This document shows, piece after piece, positions 2,101 through 49,149 of a stretch of 64,000 bases of DNA (its first letter is position 1; the number at the start of each line of letters is the position of its first letter). Below the pieces are notes generated by a model, which saw only the letters and a program-made list of their open reading frames with translations, had not been told where the DNA came from and searched no databases. Where the stretch lies: positions 558,001 through 622,000 of the forward strand of contig CDROCS010000960.1 in assembly GCA_977020255.1 (NCBI GenBank). The letters run 5' to 3'. The translations under genes were made by a program, and so were the position numbers. The DNA comes from Obrimoposthia wandeli. Taxonomy: Eukaryota.

Positions 2101-2152
2101 ATTTAAATAACATAAATTATATATTAAAATAAAATATCCTTAATAAATATAT

Positions 2153-2605: not shown

Positions 2606-2659
2606 TTGAAAATAAAATAAAATGAAATACTAAAATGATATATTTGTTTATACTTAAAA

Positions 2660-3035
2660 TTATTTGTGTTGAAGTTTCAACCATAAAAGACTCAGAGGTC
2701 CGCAGTTTTTAGTTAATGGATTCTGACATTTAACTCGATTATAGTAGACTGGAATGTTTTCTTTTCAAGTGTAGACACCAACTTTGCAGGATAATAGAAT
2801 CCAAAAGGATCAAACACTCGAATCTCGAATCTGTCAACGAATATTGCTATCCAATGCTCGCCTGGTAGATTTGAAGTATGAGTATTGATAATGTAACCTC
2901 CGGGTTTTAATGATGGAATTTTATCCAATGAATATACTCCATTAAATTTGTTATTCAATAATATTTTTCCGGATTTATGAATTTCTAAAGTACTAATTTA
3001 AATAAAGAATATAATATACAATAAACTTACTTCAT
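2660..3035 (-). CDS. Adenain-like (C5 family) maturation protease; intron 2993-3030 and 1-nt frameshift at 2757-2760
   Basis: Spliced read MNTLEIHKSGKILLNNKFNGVY...PGEHWIAIF...FDPFG; after a shift in an A run reads YYNRVKCQNPLTKNCGPLSLLWLKLQHK*; His, Asp, Gln and Cys catalytic residues present. Confidence 0.88.
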
Positions 3036-4252: not shown

Positions 4253-4648
4253 TTTGGAAAATAGTACCTTTAAGACGTTTGTTTATACTATTTAAATTAT
4301 TTCTTTTACGTTTAAGACCCTTTCCATTTTGTTCAACACAATTTGCGACTTTATTTAAACTCTCAACAGCATTATTTTTTAATTTTGGAATCAAAGTTTT
4401 GACTTCTTTGATTGTATTTTCTTTGAGAGATGAAATTATGTTTTTGGATTTGTTAACGCAGTTCCTACCGTTTCACCAATTACATTGGCAGCACTTGTAG
4501 CTGCTGATAAACCAACTTTTTTTAACAATGGAATAGCTAATCTAGAAATAGTTTGATACCAACCAGATCCATATTGTTTACCAATGAAATAGGGAAGTTC
4601 ACCGCCCTGTTGACTTTTGCTAAAAAATTTTATAATTGATGTATTCAT
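4245..4648 (-). CDS. Small basic/amphipathic virion protein (cupiennin-like gene of adintoviruses), frameshifted at 4441-4445
   Basis: QQGGELPYFIGKQYGSGWYQTISRLAIPLLKK; adding one A to the A5 run continues NIISSLKE...GKGLKRKR...TIFQND*, overlapping the MCP ATG. Confidence 0.7.
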
Positions 4649-4695
4649 TTTATATATATATATATATATTTATATTTTAAATATATTTATATTGT

Positions 4696-5709
4696 TTATA
4701 CTTTACGTAAATGAAGAGTTAAACTAGTTTTTGCTCCATATGAAAATGGAATTAAATTACCAGAATCATCACGTATATTTACCTCGATTCTATTAATACT
4801 TGAATCTCTCATTTTCAAGTACATTGGATTATCAATTTTAACATTTACTACATCTCCATATCGATATTTTAATGATTTTAACCAAATAGACTTTAACAGT
4901 GGAACATAATCAGATCCTACTAAGACAGAATCTGTTAAACTAGTATAAATATACATTTGATTATATGAGCTAGAAAGTGTTGGTTTTTGAAAACCTTTAA
5001 TTCGTTTCTCAAAGAAAACATTATTAAAACCTAATAAAGATGCAAGTTTTTCATCAAATAAAACTGATTTTACATTTTTCTTTAATAAAATATCAAATAA
5101 TCCGTCTGAATCTATATTACAGCTTTTAAAAATTTCATTACATTTACTGGCTATAATATTACATAATGAAGAACTATCTTGTATCAAATAATTTTGATTA
5201 AATTTTATTTCGTATTCATATTCAGCTAAATAATAAATTGTAATTCTCATTTTAGCATGAATATTTTTATTTATGTCAACAATTTCATCACTTGTTATAA
5301 CATGACTAGAAATTTTTTGTATTTCATTAATACCTATAATTTTTGATTCTTCTAAAGTTTCGAATTTTAACAACATTCGATGAATACTGTTAATTGTACT
5401 TATTTCTAATTTTTGACCCTTTGTAATTTTGAAATTGAAAACAGTATTTAAATTATTAAAAATTAATCCATTTAAAATTGCAAAAGATACATCGAAAGTT
5501 TTCATTTCTATCTTTTCCGTTTTATAAAGTATTTTTGAATTAGTTTGTATTGTTAAAGGAGTAAAATTAAATACAAATTCAGTCAAGGCAACCTCCCATT
5601 CACCATCTAAATTTAGAGAGTTTTCCCAATCTACAGTAAATTGATTGGCTGTATTGTTAGGTTGAGTACTTGGACAACTATTACTAGGTAAAATAATATA
5701 TTTTGACAT
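4696..5709 (-). CDS. Polinton minor capsid protein (penton, PX), 337 aa
   Basis: IILPSNS...NNTANQF...LDGEWEVALTEF N-terminus and VPLLK...NPMY...IEVNIRDDSG...TSLTLHLRK C-terminus. Confidence 0.88.
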   Translation of the reverse strand: MSKYIILPSNSCPSTQPNNTANQFTVDWENSLNLDGEWEVALTEFVFNFTPLTIQTNSKILYKTEKIEMKTFDVSFAILNGLIFNNLNTVFNFKITKGQKLEISTINSIHRMLLKFETLEESKIIGINEIQKISSHVITSDEIVDINKNIHAKMRITIYYLAEYEYEIKFNQNYLIQDSSSLCNIIASKCNEIFKSCNIDSDGLFDILLKKNVKSVLFDEKLASLLGFNNVFFEKRIKGFQKPTLSSSYNQMYIYTSLTDSVLVGSDYVPLLKSIWLKSLKYRYGDVVNVKIDNPMYLKMRDSSINRIEVNIRDDSGNLIPFSYGAKTSLTLHLRKV

Positions 5710-6735
5710 TATTCAATTTGAGAAGCAAATATCCAAGAAGGTTCAGAGTATCCGTGCCACTTTACGTAATATTGTTTATTCTTACCACGACCTTTAGTTT
5801 CTAAAATTTCTTGTATTCGATATAGTTTAGGTTTATCAATTAATTGTAACTCTTGTTTATAAAATTTTCCTTTGATGATGACGTTATCAATATCTTTTAA
5901 AATATACATTATTGGATTTTGTTTATAATTAATATCATGAATTTGAAAAACCTCATCACTCCAATTTTGATTAAAATTTTTAATAAATGGACTTGTACTT
6001 ATTTTTGATATTCGAACATAATCATCAATTTTATATTTAGATTTAAGTTTCTTTTCTTTTTAGATTTTGTTTCAACAAAATATCAAATTCATTTTTATTA
6101 TTTACATCTACAGGTTTTAAACCATCTAAACCTCTATGTTTAGAATTATTATAAGCATAAATAATTTTTGGTAATACATTCACCCATTTCTTATTACCTT
6201 GTTTAGTAAAATATTTCTTTAACCGTTCTCTTAACGTTCTATTAAATCTTTCAACTACTGCAGCTTTATATTGAGAATATACTGAATAATGATTGATATT
6301 TTCAGTTTTAAATAATTTCTTAACATGTGAATTAAAAAATTCTTTACCTTCATCGGTTTGGATATTTACTGGTACATCATCAACAATTAAAGATTCTATT
6401 GCATGTAATAAATCAATACCTGATTTTGATTTAACACCAACTGCTTTTGCAAAACGACTAAATACATCAATACAAGTTAAAATATACTTGAATCCATTAT
6501 TTACTGAAGAATAAGGAATCATTTCCATTAAATCCATCTGCCATAACGAATTAATACCATTAGTTTTATATGATCTAGTAGGGAATTTACGTCTTAAAGG
6601 TTTATTCAGACTATATGATAATTCATTTCTTAACCATTTTTGTGTGTTTGTTTTTGATTGTTTGACTCTTTTTGTCAATTTTTCTAACCCTGTATAACCG
6701 TCTGGATCTTCTGGATTGTTCCAAATCTTTTCCAT
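5709..6735 (-). CDS. int: Retroviral-like DDE integrase with C-terminal chromodomain, frameshifted at 6057-6061
   Basis: WQMDLMEM, CIDVFSRFA, IQTDEGKEF, VVERFNRTLRE; removing one A gives KKLKSKYKIDDYVRISK...WSDEVF running into YYVKWHGYSEPSWI. Confidence 0.93.
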
Positions 6736-6897
6736 TGCAGCATGAAGAATTAAAATTTATAAATAAGTTAGACAACTTTGTATTGTTTATCCCCATTATT
6801 ATAAAAGTTAAATATATTTTTTAATCTGTTTATATGTTTGTATAAAACGAATGAATGTAATTATTTAATATTATTATAATTTTCGTTATTAAGACAA

Positions 6898-7311
6898 CTA
6901 TCCCCATCTTGAAGATATAACACTAGCTATTACTGATGCTATAGCGGGCAGTAGGGCCAATATGAATCCGCTATTTTGATTATAAATAATGTTTCTTTTA
7001 TTAATTTTACCACGTGAATTTGCTAAATTTATTAATGAATTTTTATATTTTAAAATATTATCATCAGGTTTAATTTTACCATAAATTATTTTATTTAAAA
7101 TTTTTATTAAATCATCAACTACATAAATTGGAAATGATTTCAACATTTTCATTTTATTCGTTTTTGGTACGTCAATTAAGGTTTTAAAATAAGGTAAACT
7201 TTTTGAAAATTCAATATTATTACGATCATATAATACAGTATTTATTAATTTTTTAACTTCATCTTTATCTGTCCTTTTACTATGTTTAAGAATACTCTTT
7301 TTAAAATTCAT
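6898..7311 (-). CDS. Basic protein with hydrophobic C-tail resembling adenovirus pX precursor tail (137 aa)
   Basis: Lys-rich body ending QNSGFILALLPAIASVIASVISS; directly downstream of ATPase. Confidence 0.5.
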   Translation of the reverse strand: MNFKKSILKHSKRTDKDEVKKLINTVLYDRNNIEFSKSLPYFKTLIDVPKTNKMKMLKSFPIYVVDDLIKILNKIIYGKIKPDDNILKYKNSLINLANSRGKINKRNIIYNQNSGFILALLPAIASVIASVISSRWG

Positions 7312-7312
7312 T

Positions 7313-7922
7313 TTATTTTAAAACATTATTATTATTTATTTGTTTATAGACTGTAATACCATTACGGTTAAATATATCAGTAACAATTCTTAAATCATCA
7401 GGACATGATTGAGTAAAATTTAAAAATAAATAACCATGTGGTAAAGATGTAGCATCATGAAACGCATCAATTAAATAACTCTTGTTATGAGGAAATGCTT
7501 GACGAGCAATAAAATCTATCACTGTTTGATCTCTAGGATTTTTGAATAAAATCAAATAATGTACATTAAGATTACGAGTGCGATGATTTCCTCCTTGATG
7601 AAATAAATTTTGGGTTATAAAAATTACAGTAACTTCTCTATGTCTTGCAATTTTTGTAAATAAATCATTAAAATCAGATTCTTTGTTAGCCTCTTGATAT
7701 AAGTCATCAATAACAATTACATCACCTTTTAATCTTAATGTTTTTTATTTTATTAAATTCTTGGTTTGTTAAACCAGCTTCTCCATCACCACCTTGATGC
7801 CAATATATTTTATTAAATTTATTTTTAAACATTTTTGAATTTAATAATTTACAAACAAATAAAGTTTTTCCACTACCACTTGGTCCTACTACTTGAAAAG
7901 TTGAATTGTTTGTTAATAACAT
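7313..7922 (-). CDS. FtsK/A32-like packaging ATPase, frame broken near 7725-7735
   Basis: Walker A GPSGSGKT; in the second frame Walker B VIVIDDL, RHREVTVIFITQNLF and LFKNPRD. Confidence 0.9.
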
Positions 7923-8003
7923 TATATATAAATATTAATATAAAATAAATATATCAGAATAAGTACATGTTTATAACAATAACAACATTTTATTAAATAT
8001 TTA

Positions 8004-8390
8004 TTAAACATCAAAATATTCAGTCGCTGTATGAATCCTCCAGATGAGAGTTGTTTCATTCTGTTTATTTATTTTATATCCGAGAATTTTTATTTCGAGC
8101 ATCCAACTTCTTCCATCTTCTTGAATATCCGAAATCTTTGTTCCACCACAATCATAAAATTTACACTTATCTCCGCGCATAAATATACCCTCATTCTCAA
8201 GTTCAACATCAATTTTCAAATATTTGACGATTTCATTGAATTGTTGAATGTCTTTGTCATCAAAATCAGAGACTCGGTAATTGTACAAAGTTTTCGATAA
8301 TGTCACTGGCATAGTCATTGGTTGAATCCATGCAGATGCCAAGAAGAACATATCATACTCGTAATACTTTTGAACGGATTTATAAGACAT
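8004..8390 (-). CDS. Hypothetical Polinton protein (128 aa)
   Basis: Intact ATG-started ORF co-oriented between TBP-like and ATPase genes; no family recognised. Confidence 0.65.
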   Translation of the reverse strand: MSYKSVQKYYEYDMFFLASAWIQPMTMPVTLSKTLYNYRVSDFDDKDIQQFNEIVKYLKIDVELENEGIFMRGDKCKFYDCGGTKISDIQEDGRSWMLEIKILGYKINKQNETTLIWRIHTATEYFDV

Positions 8391-8405
8391 TTAAAATTGA
8401 ATGAT

Positions 8406-8870
8406 TTAATTAGAAATTGTTTCGTATTTATATAATTTATTTTTAATGTATAACATGATATCGTTAACTTGATTTTGAAAATCTAAATTTCTAAGACCTA
8501 AAATTACGACCTTTCCAGATGTGAAAATATTTACACACAATGGATTGAAAATATTTAATCTTAAGCCTGGGAAAACCTCAGGGTCAAATGAACATGCATT
8601 ACGTAATACATTCGATAATTTAAATAGATTGATACTTTGTTCTAAATTTTCACATATCGTAATTGATTGAATACCAAGTATATTTATTCTTAAAGGGTAA
8701 GAAATATTTTTAATAGGTACCTTACATCCCATAATCCTGCATTTCTTATTTCTAAAAATAAGTATTGTATAATCTTTGGCTTTATAAACGTATTGTTCTG
8801 GTCGTGTTCGAAATTTTAATTTGGATACATCATCTAAGCAAATTCCTTTATAATTAATATTTGTTAACAT
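8406..8870 (-). CDS. Divergent TATA-binding protein (TBP)-like protein, about 154 aa from ATG at 8870
   Basis: Two TBP repeats: TILIFRNKKCRIMGCK and SFDPEVFPGLRL...VNIFTSGKVVILGLR, compared with canonical TALIFSSGKMVCTGAK and YEPELFPGL...LIFVSGKVVLTGAK. Confidence 0.85.
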   Translation of the reverse strand: MLTNINYKGICLDDVSKLKFRTRPEQYVYKAKDYTILIFRNKKCRIMGCKVPIKNISYPLRINILGIQSITICENLEQSINLFKLSNVLRNACSFDPEVFPGLRLNIFNPLCVNIFTSGKVVILGLRNLDFQNQVNDIMLYIKNKLYKYETISN

Positions 8871-8977
8871 TGTAAGTAAAATAATTAAATTATTGTATTT
8901 ATATATATATTTTTTTTTATTCAGTCTACAAATCAACCAATATCCAATCAGTCAAATCAAATCAATCATATCATCAG

Positions 8978-11900
8978 ATGAGTATATGTAAAACTTATTC
9001 AAATATTTGTTTTTCGGATACACATTTTAATCCTCAAGAATGTCATGATATAATGAAAAAATATTATGGTTATTCATACAAAAAGATAAATTATTTCATA
9101 TGTCCACAATGTTTAAGCACTGAAAATGTTGATTACAACTTATTTTATAGTCGACATGTTAGTCATTTAAAAGCATATGAAAATGTTAGTAAGAAAAAAT
9201 TATTTAAAGTACCGGCTTTAAGCAAAAGAACTGATATAATTAATGTACCATCAAACATAGTAATTTCAGCTCCTACAATTACGTCACGAAAACGTAAAAT
9301 AAATGATAATATACATATTAAAACATCATTAGAAAATAGTTATTCAATGATATCCATGAAAGTAGATCATCTCAATCTTGTAAGTCTTAAGGTTCCAGTT
9401 TCATTATTAAACGAACTAGAAAGAATAGTGCAATTAATGGGAAAAGCAAAGATACAATACATCATTAGAATGAGGTTTGAAAAGAATGATGGAGAAACTA
9501 AAGAATTGTATGCTTCGCATCGAGCAATGATTTTTTCACATGCTATAATTTCAGAAATGGAAGATACAATGGAAAATAAAGTTGAAGAATATTCAGAAAA
9601 AGGTAGTGGTTGGAAATTGATGAATATACTTGAATATGCATTTATTGTTACTAAATATAGTCAAATTTGTGCATTGTCAGGTCATTCATATATTAAATCA
9701 CCAAATTATCTTACAAAATCTAAAGCAGTCGTCAATATTCAAAACTCTGATAATCTTTGCTTTATTTATGCAATATTGTCAATACTTAAATATAATGAAA
9801 TAAAAATAAATAGAAATAGACCAAGCCAATATGAAAGATTTTTAAATGATTTTGTATATAATTCCGAAGACATGCCTATGAAAATATCAAATATATCAAA
9901 ATTTGAACGGCAAAATCCTGGTATAATAATAAATGTATTCATATTCAACGAGATAAGTGAAAAAGAATCAAAAACTGATGTTATCAAGAATCCTTATATT
10001 GATATTGCATACAAATCAAAAATAAAGGAAGGAACTATAGTTAATTTATTGTTACTAGAATCCAAGGAACGGTTTCATTATATAGGAATAAGTTGTCTTA
10101 ACCGGCTATTAAATATTCGAACTGGAACGACTAGAATTAGCAGAAAATGGTGTGAAAAGTGTTTACATGGTTTCAAAACCGATTTGTCATTAGAAAAGCA
10201 TAAAGTTTTATGTGACTATAATCAAGAAAGCACTACAATGTATACTATGCCTAAGAATAAGTACGTTAAATTCAATGATTGGTCAAAAACTATATCACCG
10301 AAATATGTCGTTTACGCTGATTTTGAATCTGTATTAGTACCAGATGAGAGTTATCATCAAAAGCATATGCCTGTCGCATCTGGCATGTTATTTATGAGTA
10401 CAGATGAAATTGAAACCCAGTATCAATATAATGTTGGTGATGACTGCATAGTTAAGTTTCTTCAGTCAATAGAGAACTTGGCTAAAGAAAAGGTTTTACC
10501 ATGGTATTTAGATGCTCTTAAAAACGTAATGATTCCCTTAATAAATGCAGAGATTCATACATTTAGCAATGCCAATGAATGTTATTTATGTCACGAATCA
10601 TCTGAAAAATATGTTAAAGATCATGATCACTTTACTGGTAAATATCTAGGTCCTGCATGCAATGAATGTAATTTATCAAGAAAACTTCGTCCAACTTTAC
10701 CTATTGTGTTTCATAATCTCAGAGGTTATGATTTACATCATATTTTAAAACATGCATTGAATAAATTTACTGACTGGGATATAAATATTATACCACAATC
10801 AACGGAAAAGTTTCAAGCCATGATTGTAAGATTAGGTCAAATAACTCTGAGATTTATAGATTCTTTGCAATTTTTGCAATCATCTTTGGAAAATTTAGCC
10901 GGTAAATTACCAACTATTCCATTAACAAGATCAGTTTTTCCATCTAAACTTATTGATGGCAAAGGAATATTCCCATATGATTTTGCTACATCATTAAATG
11001 TCCTCCAGAATAAGTTAAGTTTACCAGTAAAATGGAATGATAAAATCACAGACACTGAATATCAAAAAGCACAAGATGTTTGGAAAATAACCAATTGTAG
11101 AAATATGTTGGATTATATGTTAGTTTACTTAAAGACTGACGTATATTTATTAGCTGACGTATTTCAAACATTCAGAAGAAAAGCTCTCAGTGAAGATGGT
11201 TTAGAACCACTTAACTTTTTAGCATTCCTGGGTTGAGTTGGGCAAGTGCTCTAAAAATGTTAAAACATAAGGTTGAACTGATGCAGGATCCTGAAATGTA
11301 CAACATGATTTATTCGGGTATACGAGGAGGAATGACATTTGTCAATAAGCATCATGTAGTCGCTGATGAAGAAACAAGTCTTTTATATATAGATGTTAAT
11401 AATTTATATGGATGGGCTCTTGATCAACCTTTACCAAAAGGAGATTTTGAATGGATTCTTGATTATATAAAATTAAACGAAATATTGCATGAAATGAAAA
11501 ATGTGAACATGGAACATATTGAATATGGTTATTTTATGGAAGTAGACTTGGTAATACCAGAAAACCTTCATGACTTTTTAGATGATCTTCCTATAGCTCC
11601 AGAAAAGAAATGTCCACCTGGTAAAAAAGTTGAAAAACTTTTAATGACACATTCGCCAAAAAGTCATTATGTTATTCATTGGAGACTATTGCAGATGTAT
11701 GTTAGTTTAGGAGCAGTGGTAACAATTATTCATCGAGCAGTAAAATTCTCTCAGGCTAAGATATTCGCAGAATATATAGAATATAATTCAGAAATGAGAT
11801 CACAAGCAACGAATAAATGTGACAAAGATTTTTATAAACTTAAAAATGTTAGTTTGTATGGAAAGACTGTTGAAAATGTTAAGAAACGATTGAATCTTCG

Positions 11901-12618
11901 CATCTGCACTAGTTCTACAAAATTAATCACATATACTAGCAAACCTATGTTTCAACGATCAATTGAAATTCATGATAATTTAATAGCTGTTTTATTAAGA
12001 AAAGATTTTATTTGTCTCGATCGACCAAATTATATAGGCCAAGCTGTACTAGACCTTAGCAAATTACGAATGTATACTCTTCAGTATCATGATTTGCAAA
12101 TATATCGTAATTTATTCAATTGTTCAATTAATATAGTTGCCGGTGATACCGATTCATTCTTTTTGGAATGTAAAAACGTTAATTTAAGAAAACAGTTGTT
12201 ACCAAAAATGATTGCAGATGGATTATTAGATACGTCAAATTATAATGTGAATGATCCATTATATTCTAATAAATTTAATAGTAAAATAGGTTTATTTAAA
12301 GATGAATCGGAAGGAAGAATGTATAAAGAATGGATTTTCTTACTTTGTAAATGTTATTCACTTAAGTTTGAAGATGACTTTGAAAATAATAAAGCAAAAG
12401 GAGTAAATCTTAAGGGTTCAACGGTTGTACATCAAACATATTTAGACGTGTATGAAAACGGTATTGCATATAATATACCTCAAAAGAAGTTTGGAACAAT
12501 AAATCATCAACTATACACAATCATAATACAAAAGACTGCTCTCAGCTCATCAGATGACAAGCGCTATTGGATCGAGAAAAATAGAAGCCGCGCTTATGGA
12601 CATTATGAAATCACATAA
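8978..12618 (+). CDS. polB: Protein-primed family B DNA polymerase with embedded endonuclease VII-like insert, 1-nt frameshift at 11216-11220
   Basis: YADFES, FHNLRGYDLH, DVYLLADVF, YIDVNNLYG, KLKNVSLYGKT, AGDTDS; DHDHFTGKYLGPACNECN insert; T6 instead of T5 restores NFFSIPGLSW. Confidence 0.96.
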
Positions 12619-12689
12619 TAAATGTGTTTAATTTTGTATTATTCTCTGACTTCTTTCTTATTTATTTTTGATTTAATTTTTGATTTAAT

Positions 12690-13731
12690 ACAAATTTTAA
12701 CATAATTCTTTAGATGTGTAAGCCTGGGAAAAAACTTTGATCTAAATTTTCACATAGAATAGTATGTGTGTGATTACGTAATACATTCTTAACTTATAAG
12801 AGTGAACTTTAGTTTAAATTTCACATAAAATAGTGTATGTGTGTGTTAAAAACCACATTCCTTAACTGATAAGAGTGAACTTTATCATAAATTTTCACAT
12901 AGAATAGTTTGTGTGTGATTACGTAATACATTCTTAACTAATAAGAGTGAACTTAGTATAAATTTCACATTAAATAGTGTGTGTATGATTACGTCATACA
13001 TTCTTAATTGTTAAGTGTGAACTTTATCATAAATTTTCATTATGGACTAGATCACAAAAAAGAAGGGTGGAGACTAAGCCACTTGATCCTTTGAATTAGT
13101 GGTTAGCCAAAAAGAAGGGTGGAGACTAGATCACTAAAAGATGGGTGGAGACTAGATCACAAAAAGAACGGTGGAACCTAGATCACAAAAAGATGGGTGG
13201 AGACTAAGCCAATTGATCCTTTGAATTAGTGGTTAACCAAAAAGAAGGGTGGAGACTAGATCACAAAAAGATGGGTGGAGACTAGATCACAAAAAGATGG
13301 GTGGAGACTAAGCCAATTGACCCTTTCATAGTGGTATATCTCAAAAAGAAGGGTGGAGACTAAGCCACTTAACCCTTTCATAGTGGTATATCTCAAAAAG
13401 AAGGATGGAGACTAAGCCACTTGACCCTTTCATAGTGGTATATCTCAAAAAGAAGGGTGGAGACTAAGCCACTTGACCCTTTCATAGTGGTATATCTCAA
13501 AAAGAAGGGTGGAGACTAAGCCACTTGACCCTTTAAACTATGGACGACCATAGTAGTATATCAAGGAAGGATGGAGTCTAAGCCACTTGACCCCCCCTCC
13601 CCTCCCCCTAAAGGGTGTCACTCCATAAGGGTGTCACACCATAAAAGGTGTCTTGCCACACCATAAGGGTATATGTTGCCTCACCAGAGGTGTACATGTC
13701 AAGTGGCTTAGACTCCATCCTTCTACCTACT
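12690..13731 (-). repeat. Right terminal inverted repeat (longer than left through extra subterminal repeat units)
   Basis: Reverse complement of 1319-2100 with additional GAAGGGTGGAGACTAAGCCACTTGACCCTTTCATAGTGGTATATCTC units. Confidence 0.93.
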
Positions 13732-26635: not shown

Positions 26636-26636
26636 A

Positions 26637-35199: not shown

Positions 35200-36255
35200 T
35201 TATATGCATAAGTATTCAGATAACTTACTTTCTTGCTTTATCTCGACCAAAATCAATTGTAGATGTGCAAAACTATGATTCATTATGTTTTTAATGCTAT
35301 TCTCACAGTTTAAAAGGGTATTGTAATAATTAAGCATCGTTATCGTGTTTTATAATTTTCCCATATTTAATTTTTTCAAGTACGAGCCCAGTCAAATACC
35401 GCTGAAACTTACAGTTTTGCCTACATTTACAAAGCAAAATAAACTTTGATAAATTTATTTACTTTTAATATTGATTATGATTTTCAATGTAATGATGAGG
35501 ATACACATTAATTCATAATCCCTCGGTTGAAAGCATTCAATTTTGATAATACAAAAAGACAACACATTTCATTACATGCGAGTGATGAACTTAGATCGTT
35601 TATTGCATCTCGATTTTGATGAAATTCCAACAAGAAATGCTTACATGGTTTTAGGAAGCAGAATGCATATGATAAACATATTCAAATGTATTCATTAAGC
35701 TAACAAGGAGAATCAATTTACAAAATGATTTAAAAGCGTTTTTCAAAGTGATGACTTGTCAAAATATTTTGCTGCAAAGTTTTTAGTATATGCTGATTTT
35801 GAGTCATTGCTAGCACCGTATTATTTATATAAGCATATTCATTTTTGTTTAAAACACCAGCCATATGATAAACATATTCAAATGTATTCATTAAGCTAAC
35901 AAGGAGAATCAATTTACAAAATGATTTAAAAGCGTTTTTCAAAGTGATGACTTGTCAAAATATTTTGCTGCAAAGTTTTTAGTATATGCTGATTTTGAGT
36001 CATTGCTAGCACCGTATTATTTATATAAGCATATTCATTTTTGTTTAAAACACCAGCCATATGATAAACATATTCAAATGTATTCATTAAGCTAACAAGG
36101 AGAATCAATTTACAAAATGATTTAAAAGCGTTTTTCAAAGTGATGACTTGTCAAAATATTTTGCTGCAAAGTTTTTAGTATATGCTGATTTTGAGTCATT
36201 GCTAGCACCGTATTATTTATATAAGCATATTCATTTTTGTTTAAAACACCAGCCA
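35200..36255 (+). pseudogene. Degenerate Polinton polB fragment
   Basis: KSIVDVQNYDSLCF, FHYMRVMNLDRLL, KKCLHGF, FLVYADFESLLAP and KHQP match the N-half of the 8978 polymerase. Confidence 0.8.
35666..36253 (+). repeat. Exact 196-bp tandem triplication
   Basis: Units start at 35666, 35862 and 36058 (CATATGATAAACATATTC...AAAACACCAGC). Confidence 0.95.
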
Positions 36256-36425
36256 AGTAGGTGCTTTGATGGAGTCTAGACCACTGGGGGGGGTCCCCTG
36301 TGTGCGCACACCAAGTTAAAGGGTGTCACACCATAAGGGTGTCACACCATAGAAATGTCACACCATAGCGTGTCACACCATAAGGGTATATGTTGCCTCA
36401 CCCTAGGGGTGTCTTGCCACACCAT

Positions 36426-37019
36426 AAGGGTCTGGCTCAGAAAGGTTATGAAGGTTTGAAGGTATGGTCGTGACCGTCTATGGTCGGCCAACATACCCAA
36501 GGGGTTGTGGTCATCCATAGGTCAAAGGGTCTGGCTCAGAAAGGTTATGAAGGTTTGAAGGTATGGTCGTGACCGTCTATGGTCGGCCAACATACCCAAG
36601 GGGTTGTGGTCGTCCATAGATCAAAGGGTCGGGGTCAGTTTTGACTTGAAACTTTGAAGGTATAATTAAGGTCAACTATGGTTGGCCGTCACATCTAAAG
36701 GGTTGTGGTCGTCCATAGGTCAAAGGGTCGGACTCAGTTTTGACTTGAAACTTTGAAGGTATAATTAAGGTCAACTATGGTTGGCCGTCACATCTAAAGG
36801 GTTGTGGTCGTCCATAGGTCAAAGGGTCGGGGTCAGTTTTGACTTGAAACTTTGAAGGTATAATTAAGGTCAACTATGGTTGGCCGTCACATCTAAAGGG
36901 TCATGGACGTCCATAAATCAAAGGGTCAAGGTCAGTTTTGACTTGAAACTTTGAAGGTATAATTAAGGTCAACTATGGTTGGCCATCACATCTAAAGGGT
37001 TGTGGTCGTCCATAGGTGA
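36426..37019 (+). repeat. About 99-bp subterminal minisatellite, 6 units
   Basis: AAGGGTC-initiated units at about 36426, 36523, 36623, 36722, 36821 and 36920. Confidence 0.85.
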
Positions 37020-39399
37020 AAGGGTCGGGCTAAAAACAAAGTCAAGTTTAAAATATCAAGGTTTTAGTACATGGTTGGAATCATCTTTAGAAGGTGAATT
37101 CAGTCATAAAGTATGGTCGGTCATATATGAAGGGTTCGGGATATAGACCAAATCAAGTTTTAAATGTCAAAGTTTTAATACATGGTTGTATTCATCTTTA
37201 GAAGACGAATTCATCCATATATGTATGGTCGTCCATAGATGAAGGGTTAAAGAAAAGTTGGAATTTCATAGTTTCAAGTACATGGTTGTATTCGTCAACA
37301 TATTACGAGTTTAATCATGTAAAATTTTTATGGTCGTTCACAAGTTAAGGGTAAGATTTGGAACAAACATGATAATTTTATTACATGGTTGTATTTGCAT
37401 ATGAAAATTGACTTCAAAGATACCCTTAAGGTCATGCATACTTTAAGAGGTCCTTGTGAAAAAAAAAAATAAAAATACTTGTAATTTTCTAAAATAAAAA
37501 TATTTTTAAATTTAAATTTGTGCCAAATTATTTTGTTAGATTTTGGTAAAGATAAACAAATTTTTAATTTAACAAGTTTTTTAAGATATTAAAGTAACAT
37601 TATTTAAAATAAATATTAAGGAAAAAGTTAATAAACTCAAATTACTTTACTAATAGTATTATTATTATTATAATTTGATAAATATTTAAATTTAAGCAAA
37701 TTTTTATCCATTTTATTAATGTAATTAAACAATTCTTTGCGGAAAAATTACTTGTAATTTTGTTTTTCTTCAAAATAATAATAATTTAAATTTGCGCCAA
37801 TTTAATTTGTTAGATATTAATAAAGTTAAACAAATTTTAATTTAACAAGTTTTTAAATATTAAAGTACCAACACATCTATCAATCAATTATTCTATGTGA
37901 AAGTTCACTCTTATCAGTTAAGGAATGTATTACGTAATAATACACACACTATTATATGTGAAAATTTAGTACAAAGTTTTTCCCAGGCTTAGGCATCTAA
38001 AGAATTATGGTAAAATTTCTTTAAATAACTTAAATTTCATGTCATAAGGGTCTTGGAGAAAAATACTTGTAATTTTCTAAAATAAAAATATTTTTAAAAT
38101 TTAAATTTGTGCCAAATTTTTTATCGTTTCTTTGATTTAATTAAACAAATTTGATTTTAAACATAATGTTAATTATAAAATAATTAATAATTTGATAAAA
38201 ATTCATCTTACCACAAGTTATTCATTGAATCCATTGATGTATGTCCGTCAGCCTAATAGCATTATTCTATAATCTTACTGTAACTTTAGAAAAAATAACA
38301 AATTTATTACATTAAAATTTAAAAATTGCGCGGTTTTTTATTGTTTACAATTAATGTATTTAAACAATGAAGAAAATAGTTTCAAACGCAAAGCAATTCA
38401 TATTAACAAGTACTATTTGATATTTTTAAAATATAAATAATTTATTTAAAAAAAAAAAGAATACTTCAAGTTCAAGTTAAATTTTGATAAAAGTCTGTAA
38501 AATGATAAATTCTAACATTTTTTTTATATGTAAATGACCGACATTTGTATATTATCCCTTTTGATGTATTTAAACAAATGTATATACAAACCTAATTATT
38601 ATAACTATAAGTTAAATATCTTAAATATTTATTAATTTTAAAATTGCATTATTTTATGATTGTAATTTATTCCTAAAATAATTTGTAATTTTCAAATTAA
38701 TACTAGCAACCAATGAATAACATTAATATGTTTACATTATATTAATTAATATGTACATTTTCATGTGTGTGTTTTCTCTCACATAACTTTCACATGTTAT
38801 AATGATCAATTAACACTCACATAAATAATTAAAACATCCTTATAACATTCCTTAATTGATTTTTATTTAAACTGATAAAATTAACTTCATGTTATTCAAA
38901 GCTTACTGGTTAAAGAAATGTTTATTTATATAATTTGAGTATTAACTTTATTCGATTTTCACTATAAATATTCGAAAATATCTTTAACACATTCAAAATA
39001 ATCATAACTTCATGTTATTCAAAGCTTACTGGTTAAAGAAATGTTTATTTATATAATTTGAGTATTAACTTTATTCGATTTACACTATAAATATTCGAAA
39101 ATATCTTTAACACATTAAAAAAAAAAAAATAACTTCAATTTTTAAAATTTGTATCGAATATTGAAAATTCATTTGAAAACACATGTTAATCAAAGCTACT
39201 GAAAGCCTTGTCTATAAATTCGAATATCAAATCTTTAATAATATTGTTTTATATGTAAATAAATCAAATTATGTATATATTCGATTATCAACTTAGTATT
39301 TATATTTATTATTCGACTTTCTAAAATAATTAAAATGTCTTGTAAAAACACATAAAATTAATTATCGATTGTATGAATTAGTACAAGTATGAATGCAAA

Positions 39400-40330
39400 T
39401 ATGAAGGCAAATACTAGTAAGAGCCTTAGCAAGTGAATGTAATTGAAAAAATAAGAGTGTCGAGAGTTTGATTGAATGCAAGTGTAATTTAGACTATAAG
39501 TAAATTAAAATAGAGTTTTCGTTGAATAAATTATAGTTAGATTGAATGCAAGTATGAATGTAAGTGAATGCTAGTATGAATTTCAATACAAGTAAGTGTC
39601 TTAGCAAGTGAATGTAATTTAAAAATAAGAGTGTCAATAGTTTGATTGAATTCGAGTGTAAGTTAGACTATAAGTAAATTAAAATAGAGTTTTCGTTGAA
39701 TAAATTATAGTTAGATTGAATGTAAATGAATGCAAGTATGAATTCAAGTGAATGCAAATACAAGCAAGAGTCTTAGCAAGTGAATGTAATTGAAAAAAAT
39801 AAAAATAAGAGTATCGATAGTTTGATTGAATGCGAGTGTAATTTAGACTATAAGTAAATTAAAATAGAGTTTTCGTATGAATAAAGTTATGTTAAGTTAC
39901 AGTAAATTAATAACAAGTAAGCAACTATAAGAAGCAGTGATATTGAAGTATGTTAAAAATTAGAACGACTAAGTTATGGCAAGATTAATAGAAAACAACA
40001 CTAAATTTGACAGTATGAATGAAAATTAGTAAAATATTAATGTATTTGAATGTATTTGAATGATAGTTTGAATAAATTACTGTTAGATTGAATGTAAATG
40101 AATGCAAGTATGATTGAATGCAGGGTCAAGTACAAGTAAGAAAGAATACGCAATATGCAAGTACGAATGTCAATTATGAATGAAAATTAGTAAATATATT
40201 AATGAATTTGAATGCTAGTTTAAATATATGAGAGTTAGAATGAATGTAAGTGAATGCAAGTATGAATGTAAGTGAATGCAAATATGAATACAAATACAAG
40301 TAAGAATCTTTGCAAGTGAATCTTAAACTG
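39400..40330 (+). repeat. GAATGCAAGT-type degenerate satellite with about 174-bp higher-order units (mirrored at about 43990-44950)
   Basis: AGCAAGTGAATGTAATT recurs at about 39428, 39602 and 39775. Confidence 0.8.
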
Positions 40331-42027
40331 CAAGTGAGTACTAGCTAATTATTAAATTAATACTATCAATCAATGAAGATGATGTAACAACCTGATGAAG
40401 TTATAATAATTAAGATGCGAACTTTCATATTTTCACATAGTTTACCTCCATATTAAAGTTAACCTTTCATACATACTCATGCAATTAAATAATTAAAATG
40501 TCTTATCTCGTTTGATAAAATTCCTTAATTGAAATATTTTAAAATAATTAGTTTAATTTAAATTCTTTATTTTTAAATAACTTGATTATACAATTATATT
40601 CGTAAATATAATTGAAATTATCATTATTCGTTTCTCTTTTTAACTATTCGAAAATATATTTAAATACAAATTTAGTAAATTAACTCAACAAACAATTTTA
40701 TTTTTTAATTACTTGATATTTTTGCCATTGTCTTATTAATATAATATGAATATTCAATTTATTTCTTCAAAAATTCATTTTTATATGTTAAATAATATTC
40801 TTTATCACATTATTGTGGTTTTTATCAAGTGATTTTAACATTAAACTATAAAAATATTTTAATTATAAAGTTAGTAGCTGTACCGCGCCCACTGCATATA
40901 ATATAAATTTCAAATATAAAGTATTATTAAATGTATTCTTTCAAATAGTAAAAGTTCTTTCGATTTATTTAGTTTTGTTTACTAGACATTCGAAAATTGA
41001 CTTGTAAACTAAATATATTTTCGCATATATTCACTTTAATATGCTGTAAGTTATTACTTTAATATAATTTACAACCTAAACTTCAAGTAATTTACTTAAT
41101 AATCATAATATTAATGATTTGTACGATAAATTGACTTGTAAACATAAAATATTTACAACAACAAACTTCAAGTAGTTTACTTATTAATGATAATTTAAGG
41201 ATTTGTACAATAAATTGACTTGTAAACATAATTTATTTTGCATATTCATTTAATATATTGTAAGTTAATACTGTAATATTTCATTACATAAAAAGTAATT
41301 CATAGTTTACTGTCGTTTACAATAAATTGACTTGTAAACATAATTTATTTTGCATATATTTAGTTTAATACGTTGTAAATTATTACTGTAATATTCCATT
41401 ACATAAAAAGTAATTGATATTTTACTGTCGTTTACTATAAATTTACTTGTAAACATAATATATTTATGAATATATTCAGTTTAATATGTTGTAAGTTAAT
41501 CGAACTAGTGTACTTGTACAAAATTTGTTCAAAAATTACTTGTAAACATAATATTTTTTGCATATATTTAGTTTAATACGTTGTAAGTTATTATTGTAAT
41601 ATTCCATTACATAAAAAGTAATTGATAGTTTAATGTAGTAAAATATTCGAAAATTATTTGTAAACAGATTATATTTTATTTTATTTTATTTTTTTTTTTT
41701 TTTTTTTACTATAAATTCAAAAAAAAAAACAACTTTGTTTTGCAATTTGAATAAATTTCCTTATTATTTAATATTTTGAATATTCATACTTATATGAATA
41801 TTGTATATTGTATATTTTTTATACAAGTATCGACATGTTGTGATTTGATTTCAAGGTTTATAATCAACGTGAATATAAATATAATTTATATATATATATA
41901 TATATATAACATTAGCTGCACAGTTATATGTTAAGTTAACTTGGTTATTGTTATAACAGTTTTTATTTAAAATATATATATAATAATAATAATAGAACGA
42001 AATATAAAATATATTAAAATACAGATA

Positions 42028-42690
42028 TCACCATAACTCTGGTTTACCTAGATGTTTCGCCCAAAACTCTTCAAGATACTCATCATCTAGATTAGCCTTA
42101 TACCATAATATTGGCAAAATCTCCTTCTCTGGTAATCCATATTTAGGGATAAGATTAGTAAGATTTCTCTCACAATCTCTCTGAAATGATAAAGTTAAAT
42201 TAAAATAGCCATTAAATAAATATACTCATACCATATAGAATTCCAAGTAAATTATTACAAATTTTTTGTAATCATGAATTTTTCCGATATAATTCTGCAT
42301 GAATGCAAGATCACTGTTTTTTAACGGACCATAATCTTCATTTAAACGATGGAGAATGTTGTCAATTATAACTACTTTTTCTGCTGTTAGTGCTTTTTTC
42401 ACCATATTTTCGTAGGGTAATTTATTTAATTTAAGTTTATAAGATAAAGCAAACATTTTTTGTTGATGAACATCAGCATACTTCATGATTAATTTGAACT
42501 TATTTTGAACATATAATAGAGCTTGTTTGTTTAATATTCCTTCTTCTTTCTCCAACTGTAAACTCCAAATTCTAATTAAATACTTTATTTCTTCTTCTTT
42601 GTTAGAGTCATAAATTATTTGTCGTGCTTCAACATCCTGGCAGACATCGTCATACATTTCTAGAAATTGCTGATCAGTGATTTCATTCAT
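42028..42690 (-). CDS. Two-exon hypothetical protein (203 aa): exons 42232-42690 and 42028-42180
   Basis: 51-nt phase-0 intron GTATGA...TTTCAG (42181-42231); splicing joins ...LEFYM to RDCERNLTNLIPKYGLPEKEILPILWYKANLDDEYLEEFWAKHLGKPELW*. Confidence 0.75.
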
Positions 42691-43099
42691 TTCCTTGTAC
42701 TAATTTAATTGTTAATAAATTATCTTATATAACTAATAATGAATACCTAGTTCCGTTAATCAATGAATTATCTATTATTCAATATCCTGTTAATTATATT
42801 AAGTATAAAATACATTTACTTTAGGTATACATATATATATATATATTTTAATAATAAGACAAAAAGTAAGAAAACGTATTTAGTTTTAATATTACAATCC
42901 TAAATATCATAACAACCAAGTTAACTTACCAGATAACTGTGTAGTTAAGGTAATTTATCATTTAGTCTAAAACAATGAATACCAAATCGCCTACAATGCA
43001 TGTATAATTTTTAATTGTCAACTACAGTAAACTATAATTACTCTTTGTGTACAGTAATAATTTTCAATATATTAAAGTAAACATTTACAAAATATAATC

Positions 43100-46000
43100 T
43101 GTTTACAAGTCAATTTATCGTACAAATCCTTAAATTATGATTAATAAGTAAACTACTTGAAGTTTGTTGTTGTAAATATATTATGTTTACAAGTCAATTT
43201 ATCGTACAAATCATTAATATTATGATTATTAAGTAAACTATTTGAAGTTTTGGTTGTAAATTATATTAAAGTAATAACTTACAACATATTAAAGTGAATA
43301 TATGCAAAATTATATTTAGTTTACAAGTCAATTTTCGAATGTCTAGTAAACAAAACTAAATAAATCGAAAGAACTTTTACTATTTGAAAGAATACATTTA
43401 ATAATACTTTATATTTGAAATTTATATTATATGCAGTGGGCGCGGTACAGCTACTAACTTTATAATTAAAATATTTTTATAGTTTAATGTTAAAATCACT
43501 TAATAAAAACCACAATAATGTGATAAAGAATATTATTTAACATATAAAAATGAATTTTTGAAGAAATAAATTGAATATTCATATTATATTAATAAGACAA
43601 TGGCAAAAATATCAAGTAATTAAAAAATAAAATTGTTTGTTGAGTTAATTTACTAAATTTGTATTTAAATATATTTTCGAATAGTTAAAAAGAGAAACGA
43701 ATAATGATAATTTCAATTATATTTACGAATATAATTGTATAATCAAGTTATTTAAAAATAAAGAATTTAAATTAAACTAATTATTTTAAAATATTTCAAT
43801 TAAGAAATTTTATCAAACGAGATAAGACATTTTAATTATTTAATTGCATGAGTATGTATGAAAGGTTAACTTTAATATGGAGGTAAACTATGTGATAATA
43901 TGAAAGTTCGCATCTTAATTATTATAACTTCATCAGGTTGTTACATCATCTTCATTGATTGATAGTATTAATTTAATAATTAGCTAGTACTCACTTGCAG
44001 TTTAAGATTCACTTGCAAAGATTCTTACTTGTATTTGTATTCATATTTGCATTCACTTACATTCATACTTGCATTCACTTACATTCATTCTAACTCTCAT
44101 ATATTTAAACTAGCATTCAAATTCATTAATATATTTACTAATTTTCATTCATAATTGACATTTGTACTTGCATATTGCGTATTCTTTCTTACTTGTACTT
44201 GTAAATGCATTCAATCATACTTGCATTCATTTACATTCAATCTAACTGTAATTTATTCAAACTATCATTCAAATACATTCAAATACATTAATATTTTACT
44301 AATTTTCATTCATACTGTCAAATTTAGTGTTGTTTTCTATTAATCTTGCCATAACTTAGTCGTTCTAATTTTTAACATACTTCAATATCACTGCTTCTTA
44401 TAGTTGCTTACTTGTTATTAATTTACTGTAACTTAACATAACTTTATTCATACGAAAACTCTATTTTAATTTACTTATAGTCTAAATTACACTCGCATTC
44501 AATCAAACTATCGATACTCTTATTTTTATTTTTTTCAATTACATTCACTTGCTAAGACTCTTGCTTGTATTTGCATTCACTTGAATTCATACTTGCATTC
44601 ATTTACATTCAATCTAACTATAATTTATTCAACGAAAACTCTATTTTAATTTACTTATAGTCTAACTTACACTCGAATTCAATCAAACTATTGACACTCT
44701 TATTTTTAAATTACATTCACTTGCTAAGACACTTACTTGTATTGAAATTCATACTAGCATTCACTTACATTCATACTTGCATTCAATCTAACTATAATTT
44801 ATTCAACGAAAACTCTATTTTAATTTACTTATAGTCTAAATTACACTTGCATTCAATCAAACTCTCGACACTCTTATTTTTTCAATTACATTCACTTGCT
44901 AAGGCTCTTACTAGTATTTGCCTTCATATTTGCATTCATACTTGTACTAATTCATACAATCGATAATTAATTTTATGTGTTTTTACAAGACATTTTAATT
45001 ATTTTAGAAAGTCGAATAATAAATATAAATACTAAGTTGATAATCGAATATATACATAATTTGATTTATTTACATATAAAACAATATTATTAAAGATTTG
45101 ATATTCGAATTTATAGACAAGGCTTTCAGTAGCTTTGATTAACATGTGTTTTCAAATGAATTTTCAATATTCGATACAAATTTTAAAAATTGAAGTTATT
45201 TTTTTTTTTTTAATGTGTTAAAGATATTTTCGAATATTTATAGTGTAAATCGAATAAAGTTAATACTCAAATTATATAAATAAACATTTCTTTAACCAGT
45301 AAGCTTTGAATAACATGAAGTTATGATTATTTTGAATGTGTTAAAGATATTTTCGAATATTTATAGTGAAAATCGAATAAAGTTAATACTCAAATTATAT
45401 AAATAAACATTTCTTTAACCAGTAAGCTTTGAATAACATGAAGTTAATTTTATCAGTTTAAATAAAAATCAATTAAGGAATGTTATAAGGATGTTTTAAT
45501 TATTTATGTGAGTGTTAATTGATCATTATAACATGTGAAAGTTATGTGAGAGAAAACACACACATGAAAATGTACATATTAATTAATATAATGTAAACAT
45601 ATTAATGTTATTCATTGGTTGTTAGTATTAATTTGAAAATTACAAATTATTTTAGGAATAAATTACAATCATAAAATAATGCAATTTTAAAATTAATAAA
45701 TATTTAAGATATTTAACTTATAGTTATAATAATTAGGTTTGTATATACATTTGTTTAAATACATCAAAAGGGATAATATACAAATGGCGGTAATTTAAAA
45801 AGATGTTAGAATTTATCATTTTACAGACTTTTATCAAAATTTAACTTGAACTTGAAGTATTCTTTTTTTTTAAAATAAATTATTTATATTTTAAAAATAT
45901 CAAATAGTACTTGTTAATATGAATTGCTTTGCGTTTGAAACTATTTTCTTCATTGTTTAAATACATTAATTGTAAACAATAAAAAACCGCGCAATTTTTA

Positions 46001-48361
46001 AATTTTAATGTAATAAATTTGTTATTTTTTCTAAAGTTACAGTAAGATTATAGAATAATGCTATTAGGCTGACGGACATACATCAATGGATTCAATGAAT
46101 AACTTGTGGTAAGATGAATTTTTATCAAATTATTAATTATTTTATAATTAACATTATGTTTAAAATCAAATTTGTTTAATTAAATCAAAGAAACGATAAA
46201 AATTTTGGCACAAATTTAAATTTAAAAAATATTTTTATTTTAGAAAATTACAAGTATTTTTCTCCAAGACCCTTATGACATGAAATTTAAGTTATTTAAA
46301 GAAATTTTACCATAATTCTTTTAGATGCCTAAGCCTGGGAAAAACTTTGTACTAAATTTTCACATAGAATAGTGTGTGTATTATTACGTAATACATTCCT
46401 TAACTGATAAGAGTGAACTTTCACATAGAATAATTGATTGATAGATGTGTTGGTACTTTAATATTTAAAAACTTGTTAAATTAAAATTTGTTTAACTTTA
46501 TTAATATCTAACAAATTAAATTGGCGCAAATTTAAATTATTATTATTTTGAAGAAAAACAAAATTACAAGTAATTTTTCCGCAAAGAATTGTTTAATTAC
46601 ATTAATAAAATGGATAAAAATTTGCTTAAATTTAAATATTTATCAAATTATAATAATAATAATACTATTAGTAAAGTAATTTGAGTTTATTAACTTTTTC
46701 CTTAATATTTATTTTAAATAATGTTACTTTAATATCTTAAAAAACTTGTTAAATTAAAAATTTGTTTATCTTTACCAAAATCTAACAAAATAATTTGGCA
46801 CAAATTTAAATTTAAAAATATTTTTATTTTAGAAAATTACAAGTATTTTTATTTTTTTTTCACAAGGACCTCTTAAAGTATGCATGACCTTAAGGGTATC
46901 TTTGAAGTCAATTTTCATATGCAAATACAACCATGTAATAAAATTATCATGTTTGTTCCAAATCTTACCCTTAACTTGTGAACGACCATAAAAATTTTAC
47001 ATGATTAAACTCGTAATATGTTGACGAATACAACCATGTACTTGAAACTATGAAATTCCAACTTTTCTTTAACCCTTCATCTATGGACGACCATACATAT
47101 ATGGATGAATTCGTCTTCTAAAGATGAATACAACCATGTATTAAAACTTTGACATTTAAAACTTGATTTGGTCTATATCCCGAACCCTTCATATATGACC
47201 GACCATACTTTATGACTGAATTCACCTTCTAAAGATGATTCCAACCATGTACTAAAACCTTGATATTTTAAACTTGACTTTGTTTTTAGCCCGACCCTTT
47301 CACCTATGGACGACCACAACCCTTTAGATGTGATGGCCAACCATAGTTGACCTTAATTATACCTTCAAAGTTTCAAGTCAAAACTGACCTTGACCCTTTG
47401 AATTATGGACGTCCATGACCCTTTAGATGTGATGGCCAACCATAGTTGACCTTAATTATACCTTCAAAGTTTCAAGTCAAAACTGACCTTGACCCTTTGA
47501 CCTATGGACGACCACAACCCTTTAGATGTGACGGCCAACCATAGTTGACCTTAATTATACCTTCAAAGTTTCAAATCAAAACTGACCTTGACCCTTTGAA
47601 TTATGGACGTCCATGACCCTTTAGATATGATGGCCAACCATAGTTGACCTTAATTATACCTTCAAAGTTTCAAGTCAAAACTGACCTTGACCCTTTGAAT
47701 TATGGACGACCACAACCCTTTAGATGTGACGGCCAACCATAGTTGACCTTAATTATACCTTCAAAGTTTCAAGTCAAAACTGAGTCCGACCCTTTGACCT
47801 ATGGACGACCACAACCCTTTAGATGTGACGGCCAACCATAGTTGACCTTAATTATACCTTCAAACCTTCAAGTCAAAACTGACCCCGACCCTTTGATCTA
47901 TGGACGACCACAACCCCTTGGGTATGTTGGCCGACCATAGACGGTCACGACCATACCTTCAAACCTTCAAGTCAAAACTGACCCCGACCTTTGATCTATG
48001 GACGACCACAACCCATTGGGTATGTTGGCCGACCATAGACGGTCACGACCATACCTTCAAACCTTCACAACCTTTCGGAGCCAGACCCTTTGACCTAGGG
48101 ACGACCACAACCCCTTGGGTATGTTGACCGACCATAGACGGTCACGACCATACCTTCAAACCTTCATAACCTTTCTGAGCCAGACCCTTATGGTGTGGCA
48201 AGACACCCCTATGGTGAGGCAACATATACCCTTATGGTGTGACACGCTATGGTGTGACATTTCTATGGTGTGACACCCTTATGGTGTGACACCCTTTAAC
48301 TTGGTGTGCGCACACAGGGGGGACCCCCCCCAGTGGTCTAGACTCCATCAAAGTACCTACT
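43100..48361 (-). repeat. Right arm (about 5.26 kb) of the palindromic element, with 9 minisatellite units
   Basis: GACCCTTT-type unit boundaries at about 47293, 47392, 47491, 47590, 47689, 47788, 47887, 47986, 48084 and 48183. Confidence 0.93.
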
Positions 48362-49149
48362 CAGCCAATAATTATTATTATTATTATGTAGATATAACAT
48401 GCATCCCAGATTTGTTAGAGTATCATATAAAATAGCAACGGGTATTGCTAAAAGATTATTCTGCAGTATATAAGTTTTAATGTGATATTACATTTAAAAA
48501 AAAAACTCTAACTCAAATTTTTCTAGAGAAAATGATGTATTAATGGAGATGAAACAGACTTGTGAAATTGAGTTCGTACTATTGATAGCGAAGATATTGA
48601 ATTACAGCATCATTACGAGCTGGCTTACAGAATTTAGAGGAAATCTTCAGTGTCTGTCTTGGCGCTATCATTTAGAGATTTTCGAGGGAAACTCTAAAAC
48701 AAATAGCTCCAGAATCTTCTCAGTTCACACGAACAGAGGCAAATATTGGTTCTTCAGCTTAATTTCCCAATGTCTGTCTGGTCGCGCTTCGTGGCTAGAG
48801 GACAATTCGACAGAAGCGGTGCTAGAACCACTCTGCACTAGTTCTCGGTATTGCTGCATTGTTTGCTGGCAGGCAGCGCATCCTCACCCAAGTCTATGTC
48901 GTCATCATTATCGTCTTCTTCCTCCTCTTCCCATCGCGATGACGCCCATATCAACGCTGAGTATTTTTCAAGATTGTCAACTCGTGAAGAAAGTCTGTCT
49001 TGTGTGTGTGGGACTTTGTGTGCGACTGAAATCAGAAATCCGTCTTTCGTTTAAACAGCTGATCTCATTATGCTATTCATACACAATATCATTTTATCCC
49101 TGAATACTGGTTCATTTTATCATTATCACGAATGTGTGATGGGTTACTT

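Follow-up and report, generated by a model that had tools for sequence, protein, structure and literature searches.

The locus described here raises the question of why a transposable element that consists mostly of inverted repeats should carry one protein-coding gene at its center, and whether that gene does anything for the element. The locus lies in a 64,000-nucleotide stretch of the Obrimoposthia wandeli genome (contig CDROCS010000960.1, positions 558,001 to 622,000 of the forward strand), referred to below as the window; all coordinates are those of the window unless a locus is named. The original prediction placed a single spliced orphan gene at the axis of a palindromic element and attributed to it a retained function such as helper interference, repression or self-mobilization.

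Results

The element and the helper Polinton

The element is a non-autonomous derivative of a Polinton family (Table 1). Excerpts of the published descriptions (PMC8097293, PMC6431247, PMC3014272) give AGT-type ends, perfect 6-bp target duplications and terminal inverted repeats as the hallmarks of Polintons, also termed Mavericks, and describe the core genes as intronless. The element has such ends, duplications and terminal inverted repeats, and its ends are common with those of a helper that encodes integrase, PolB-like, ATPase, protease and capsid proteins. It differs from the described Polintons in having no core genes, in arms that make up 86% of its length and in its one gene, which is modeled below with an intron. 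The arms are tandem arrays with units of 99, 111, 123, 174 and 84/115 bp, and a unique core of 1.7 kb (41327–43010) holds the gene. The view that the inner inverted repeats represent a separate small transposon is unsupported; the upstream copy is a component of the element family. Three identical 196-bp copies (35666–36255) stop exactly at the left end of the element.

Table 1 Features of the palindromic element, its gene and the helper Polinton in the window.
Feature	Position	Strand	Description
Helper-type Polinton	1319..13731		12,413 bp; target duplication ATAATC; this copy with several frame breaks
Target-site duplication CAGCCA, left	36250..36255	+	6 bp
Non-autonomous Polinton/Maverick-type element	36256..48361		12,106 bp; ends AGTAGGT...ACCTACT
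Left arm	36256..41326	+	~ 5 kb; 97% complementary to right arm
Block shared with helper	37900..38036		137 bp, 87–90%; mirror copy at 46284–46421
Inner inverted repeat, downstream copy	41902..41955		54 bp; 81% to upstream copy
Exon 2	42028..42180	-	153 nt, 50 codons and TGA stop at 42028; acidic-aromatic tail
Intron (predicted)	42181..42231	-	Phase 0, 51 nt, GTATGA..TTTCAG, in-frame TGA; 49 nt in older copies
Exon 1	42232..42690	-	ATG at 42690; 459 nt, 153 codons; holds selection signal; predicted all-helical
Inner inverted repeat, upstream copy	42905..42958		Common to gene-less sister elements, which depart from the core at ~ 42902
Right arm	43011..48361	-	97% complementarity to left arm
Target-site duplication CAGCCA, right	48362..48367	+	6 bp

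The genes that define an autonomous Polinton (pPolB and a retrovirus-like integrase, plus ATPase, protease and capsids) are found in the window helper, where the PolB-like gene was called from an Endonuclease_7 domain and by eye rather than by a polymerase profile, the match to the C5-like protease is weak, and the double jelly-roll capsid is assigned from look-alikes (Atlas 0.98, with the family on 15–30% of members). The integrase carries a chromodomain and matches PF00665, the A32-like ATPase matches PF04665 in an unbroken copy, and the set also includes a minor capsid protein and a TBP-like ORF. This last ORF (8406–8870, minus strand; PF00352, E = 1e-12) is present in other Polinton copies of the genome, and no report of a TBP-like protein in Polintons was found in the literature searched.

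No replication, integration or capsid gene of the Polinton core occurs within 36256–48361. The window helper and the element have common ends and the same inner 137-bp block, which matches the inner part of the helper terminal repeats (1982–2118 and 12671–12810). An element lacking replication, integration and capsid genes must therefore use a helper integrase and polymerase, and the shared ends, together with the lack of enzymes of its own, indicate that it is probably mobilized by helper proteins.

Elsewhere in the window, an intronless ORF of 836 amino acids (22060–24570, plus strand) contains three protein-kinase domains (PF00069) and directly adjoins a region (24869–26914) with relics of the Polinton genes for the minor capsid, the major capsid and the protease. 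It is possibly cargo of a second Polinton family.

Gene model

The gene is predicted to comprise two exons on the minus strand and to encode a protein of 203 amino acids with the C-terminus LWYKANLDDEYLEEFWAKHLGKPELW. The element contains three stop-to-stop frames of at least 70 amino acids; the other two lie within arm repeats, so the claim that this is the only credible gene in 12 kb holds. The gene also lies at the palindrome axis as predicted, its midpoint being at 42359 and that of the element, which the gene spans, at 42308.5.

The unspliced ORF of 154 amino acids is terminated by the TGA within the GTATGA donor at 42231. Seven GT..AG pairs close to where exon 1 ends yield products of at least 185 amino acids, and the GTATGA..TTTCAG pair gives the longest. 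Removal of this intron would join two coding frames, as in a spliceosomal two-exon gene. A 42-nt intron with the same TTTCAG end was also read by eye in a host chaperonin gene. The GC content of exon 2 is 35%, compared with 13–20% in the intron and flanks. With a codon model trained on the Polinton ORFs of the 64-kb window, exon 2 scores +0.59 in the spliced frame, against −0.17 and −0.83 in the other frames and −0.39 for the intron, and of 6,730 windows in the rest of the stretch, 4 match or exceed this score. Open windows of exon 2 length amount to 33 of 7,432 (0.4%) in arm DNA and to 1% of base shuffles, and it is unlikely from these sequence statistics that exon 2 is open by chance. Read-through of the stop instead of splicing was rejected, since the 49-nt intron of the older copies shifts the frame between the exons and exon 2 is nevertheless open. 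The coordinates and frame of the 51-nt intron and of the 50 additional residues proposed earlier were confirmed, and we infer splicing to the 203-residue product from the sequence. Four sequencing runs of unrecorded kind covered non-coding arm DNA, and the 15 of 95 joints inspected included no intron joint, an outcome that weighs neither for nor against splicing.

It is very unlikely that the product is the 154-residue unspliced ORF, with exon 2 as a leftover or an optional extension. The confinement of the selection signal to exon 1 (see below) would fit such a product, and the 2-nt intron indel sits behind the TGA, where it cannot tell the two forms apart. However, the donor and acceptor are canonical, exon 2 is coding-like in the spliced frame only, and exon 2 shows no shared frameshift or stop once a duplicated locus is collapsed.

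The predicted protein

The protein is acidic (computed pI 5.5) and soluble, with no hydrophobic or membrane segment, and a single-sequence fold of exon 1 contains eight helices predicted at low confidence (pLDDT 59). The segment DEYLEEFW (residues 187–194, in exon 2) is reminiscent of a clamp-binding motif of a non-canonical, PIP-like kind or of an acidic activation motif.

The profile and structure search proposed for the full product was run on the 154-residue exon-1 ORF, with Pfam applied to exon 2 as well, and gave no homologue, family or fold. Pfam returned no match for exon 1 or exon 2. For the exon-1 ORF, phmmer against 1.84 billion representatives gave 0 matches at E ≤ 0.001, word searches at near and longer lengths gave nothing, the best Atlas score was 0.76, the best PHROGs E value was 0.039, and viral and metagenome contigs and PDB sequences contained no match. 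The exon-1 fold reached best Foldseek E values of 1.4–2.1 and a best VIA Z score of 6.2 over 56 residues, which is ordinary for helical bundles. No ubiquitin-like, catalytic or DNA-binding domain was detected by Pfam in the two exons or by the fold search on the low-confidence exon-1 model. Homologues in autonomous Polintons, the other relatives suggested, were sought among the helper Polintons at hand, and none was present in the 9,202 frames of the fetched loci that include them. The product may thus be described as a soluble, acidic, helical and non-enzymatic protein, as far as the model and computed properties suggest.

Gene-bearing elements

The genome carries an extreme Polinton load, with 10,631 and 1,498 exact Polinton ends of two types in 1.35 Gb and 2,440 near-exact copies of the helper ATPase (~ 2,400 helper-type Polintons). 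The gene has at least 150 sequence matches, or 175 copies as counted by a 27-nt exon-2 motif; these ~ 175 gene-bearing copies compare with at least 6,000 Polinton-ended elements. Both ends and a perfect 6-bp duplication were located in 13 of 30 neighborhoods of ~ 20 kb each, representing 10 distinct insertions in addition to that of the window, and 9 closed gene-bearing elements examined besides the window's contain no Polinton core genes. The gene is identical in 8 copies, of which 6 were examined, 4 with different target duplications; the burst is therefore recent. The same gene core stands behind three end types, two of which match the window helper; the third marks 6 elements with helper genes in a sample of 20. 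In 4 of 21 gene-bearing elements, neither the outer nor the middle arm is shared with the window element.

Three older copies with the gene measure 4.5–5.1 kb and have short inverted repeats, so the gene is on the axis because the arms grew around the unique core. Ten young gene-bearing elements span 9.6–14.8 kb (median 12.1 kb) and seven helpers 10.9–13.3 kb (median 12.2 kb), the latter being unusually compact.

Several further arrangements were observed among the loci examined. In L067–L068 (5328–12732), a 1,785-bp inverted repeat (99.8%) runs past the element end into flanking DNA, a hint of arm growth by mirror copying. One insertion with the duplication TTCCTT is found on five contigs (L151–L160), and its center is flipped relative to the flanks in some, which suggests recombination between the arms. 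Gene-bearing satellites are often located within or beside other Polintons (L053, L161, L183, L187 and L189), suggesting a nesting preference or simply the high Polinton density. At L222 (604–1395), a 3.3-kb unit is repeated in tandem at least 15 times and includes an ORF for a NIF-type phosphatase (PF03031, E = 8e-23) together with a Polinton end.

Gene-less sister elements

Among the first 100 of 1,498 hits to one end type, 20 centers were examined, 19 belonging to paired elements and one to a tandem unit, and they were assigned to 6 helpers, 13 gene-less non-autonomous elements and 1 unrelated element; a further pair of 1 kb is outside this sample. The gene-less elements are 2–12 kb in length, most with long inverted arms. 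The gene is absent from 13 of 14 sampled non-autonomous elements of this end type, the exception (C212) being a known gene-bearing copy. Among the first 100 hits to the upstream motif of the gene, ~ 47 are of the gene-less kind. All 10 loci examined that have this motif and no gene (L223–L232) depart from the core at a single position near 42902, and they are one deletion-type lineage that multiplied; an alternative cargo gene behind the same motif was found in 0 of 10. The 10 loci have in common the 140 bp that precede the gene (about 97% in 9 of them) and then switch to arm repeats.

Since the gene-less sisters multiplied, mobilization does not require this gene on the same element. Self-mobilization as a required function in cis, one of the roles in the original prediction, is contradicted by the spread of most sampled palindromic sisters without the gene.

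Selection on the gene

A total of 129 loci were aligned and 117 retained (> 96% coverage, > 90% identity). The description of the frame as intact is correct for the window copy but not for the family, in which just 62 of the 117 aligned copies are intact, a number in which intact copies are over-represented because the loci were picked by best score. The selection test was carried out on 107 copies, after collapse of the duplicated groups and removal of two copies whose 5′ ends are rearranged. Private changes in these copies comprise 35 silent, 165 replacement and 13 stop changes and 38 frameshifts, with omega of 1.14, whereas the changes shared by a clade of at least 4 copies comprise 10 silent and 10 replacement changes, with omega of 0.24 (Fisher p = 0.0018 versus private). 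Four sharing thresholds gave omega values of 0.24–0.35 and p values of 0.002–0.008. None of the frameshifts is shared, and the shared disabling changes number 0–1 versus 6–10 expected (p = 0.007–0.03), a deficit that would in part be exaggerated if the private indels reflect errors of assembly. In the 100 young copies alone, the silent to replacement counts are 7/7 for shared and 27/120 for private changes (p = 0.012, range 0.005–0.012), with significance lost at a sharing threshold of at least 10 carriers (p = 0.11).

The signal rests on 17–27 coding changes and comes from exon 1 only, exon 2 alone having 1 silent and 3–5 replacement changes, which are too few. CpG decay is not the source of the shared silent changes, and the lineage replacement changes are no more conservative than the private ones. 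An apparent amplified broken subfamily (L085–L089) and an apparent subfamily with the 49-nt intron (L030–L035) each proved to be one insertion duplicated with its flanks and were collapsed; the check for duplicated insertions covered the remaining clades in part. The stop at codon 59 that seemed to be shared results from a double change, which yields Lys in three carriers and a stop in a single one.

These patterns show purifying selection on the protein while the element multiplied, with inserted copies then decaying neutrally. The proposed comparison of omega across copies thus gave constraint on the shared changes and neutrality on the private ones, and the notion of a retained function gains from the former and from retention of the core across elements with three different end types and with outer arms that are unrelated. 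Selection is mild, with omega about 0.3 compared with about 0.001 for Maverick core genes in excerpts of PMC8097293. In those excerpts, Barreat and Katzourakis apply the logic of internal versus terminal branches to the core genes and read the lower internal-branch omega as spread through an active phase.

There is little probability that the gene is a captured host gene hitch-hiking without function in a young family whose source copies are intact by chance. That 45 to 47% of the copies are broken, that private omega is 1.0–1.1, that most sister elements lack the gene and that shared changes are few would all agree with such a passenger. Against this, replacements are depleted among the shared changes (p = 0.002–0.012), shared disabling changes are deficient, subject to the same reservation about indels, and no host paralogue was found among 150 scored of 663 candidates.

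Discussion

Proposed role of the gene

The interpretation we prefer, with a probability that falls somewhat short of even, is that the gene encodes a non-enzymatic accessory protein that aids the satellite during helper-driven replication and is exploited in trans by the gene-less sisters. On this reading, the element is a satellite to the Polinton family of the genome and the gene its one coding cargo. Its protein would be made from an activated or excised satellite in a cell with an active helper and would act as an accessory binder, with the acidic-aromatic tail as the partner-binding motif; it may tilt replication or packaging towards satellite DNA, or hold off host silencing. The benefit would fall mainly to the copies active in that cell and spill over in trans to gene-less sisters, and selection would act on the source lineages because the benefit goes mostly to copies active in the same cell. 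The arms would have grown later, as filler towards the helper length, a match that would follow if capsid size or replication by the helper determines how long the element is. The likeness to a satellite virus consists of this length match alone (medians of 12.1 and 12.2 kb). Since neither homologue, family nor fold was found, the molecular step is a guess.

A wider interpretation, which we regard as doubtful, is three-tier parasitism in one animal genome, comprising a helper Polinton, a helper-sized palindromic satellite whose own spliced protein of a new family hijacks the helper or protects the family against silencing, and cheaters without the gene that descend from the satellite. Such an arrangement would be the animal counterpart of phage satellites with interference proteins.

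Alternative roles

An unlikely alternative is a sequence-specific anti-silencing protein that binds the tandem repeats of the arms, the arrays being its targets and the gene-less sisters free riders. Excerpts of PMC5735166 describe VANC as anti-silencing proteins of Arabidopsis VANDAL transposons, whose target repeats form such arrays. The arms of the present elements are built from a number of tandem arrays that change rapidly from copy to copy, and the protein is small, dispensable in cis and selected. However, it is acidic and has no DNA-binding fold or family in the searches described above, and the outer arms differ in 4 of 21 gene-bearing elements. The likeness, that of an accessory transposon gene alongside fast-changing tandem arrays, is an analogy across kingdoms and transposon classes, with no link in sequence or fold.

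Helper interference or repression, as first proposed, is quite unlikely; here the protein would damp the autonomous Polinton and hosts with active satellites would survive better. The huge helper load (2,440 ATPase copies) leaves room for such a role, and the interference factors of phage satellites are typically small helical orphan proteins. Selection, however, acts on multiplying lineages and not on resident copies, which decay neutrally, and a host-protective role is disfavored because it would preserve particular inserted copies. The least probable reading is selfish cargo acting on host cells as a drive, toxin or cell-competition factor, for which the intron-bearing Maverick cargo of unknown origin in excerpts of 10.1101/2022.07.12.499685, one member of which became a toxin, offers a precedent, but the present product has no catalytic fold and no ubiquitin-like domain and the element no partner gene.

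Comparison with known elements

Our preferred reading of a satellite with an accessory gene has partial parallels. The nematode Mavericks in the same excerpts (10.1101/2022.07.12.499685) carry intron-bearing cargo, namely wasp proteases and krma kinases, with a ubiquitin-like and a catalytic domain. The present gene resembles these in being a gene of unknown origin, here with predicted splicing, between Maverick ends. The wasp and krma genes ride on largely complete Mavericks, whereas here the palindrome is non-autonomous and carries nothing but this one gene, whose product shows no recognizable domain. Transposon cargo in insect polintons is described in excerpts of 10.1101/2025.02.07.637071, and general background in excerpts of PMC6431247, 10.1101/2024.01.15.575659 and PMC5735166. 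Intron-bearing Maverick cargo is thus known already, and the present case adds a selected orphan gene on a palindromic satellite.

The non-autonomous Polintons of Kapitonov and Jurka, from 2006, are said to be gene-poor and non-coding and to be moved in trans via shared ends. The elements described here are likewise gene-poor and have ends common with the helper; unlike those, one lineage has retained a coding gene on which purifying selection acted. In the literature searched, no Polinton satellite that is palindromic, of helper size and equipped with an orphan gene under selection was found to be reported; outside of this literature lie Repbase, bioRxiv supplements and subscription papers.

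Non-autonomous DNA elements are usually thought to carry only cis signals, and captured genes are thought to decay. An orphan gene of a satellite under purifying selection implies a phase, as an episome or a particle, in which each element bears the cost or reaps the benefit of the gene it carries. Such a phase bears on the question, still open, of viral spread by Polintons in animals. With several insertions that have identical genes, the family is young, and it is abundant; the target of the protein would therefore be a tractable entry to the conflicts between Polinton and host and between Polinton and satellite.
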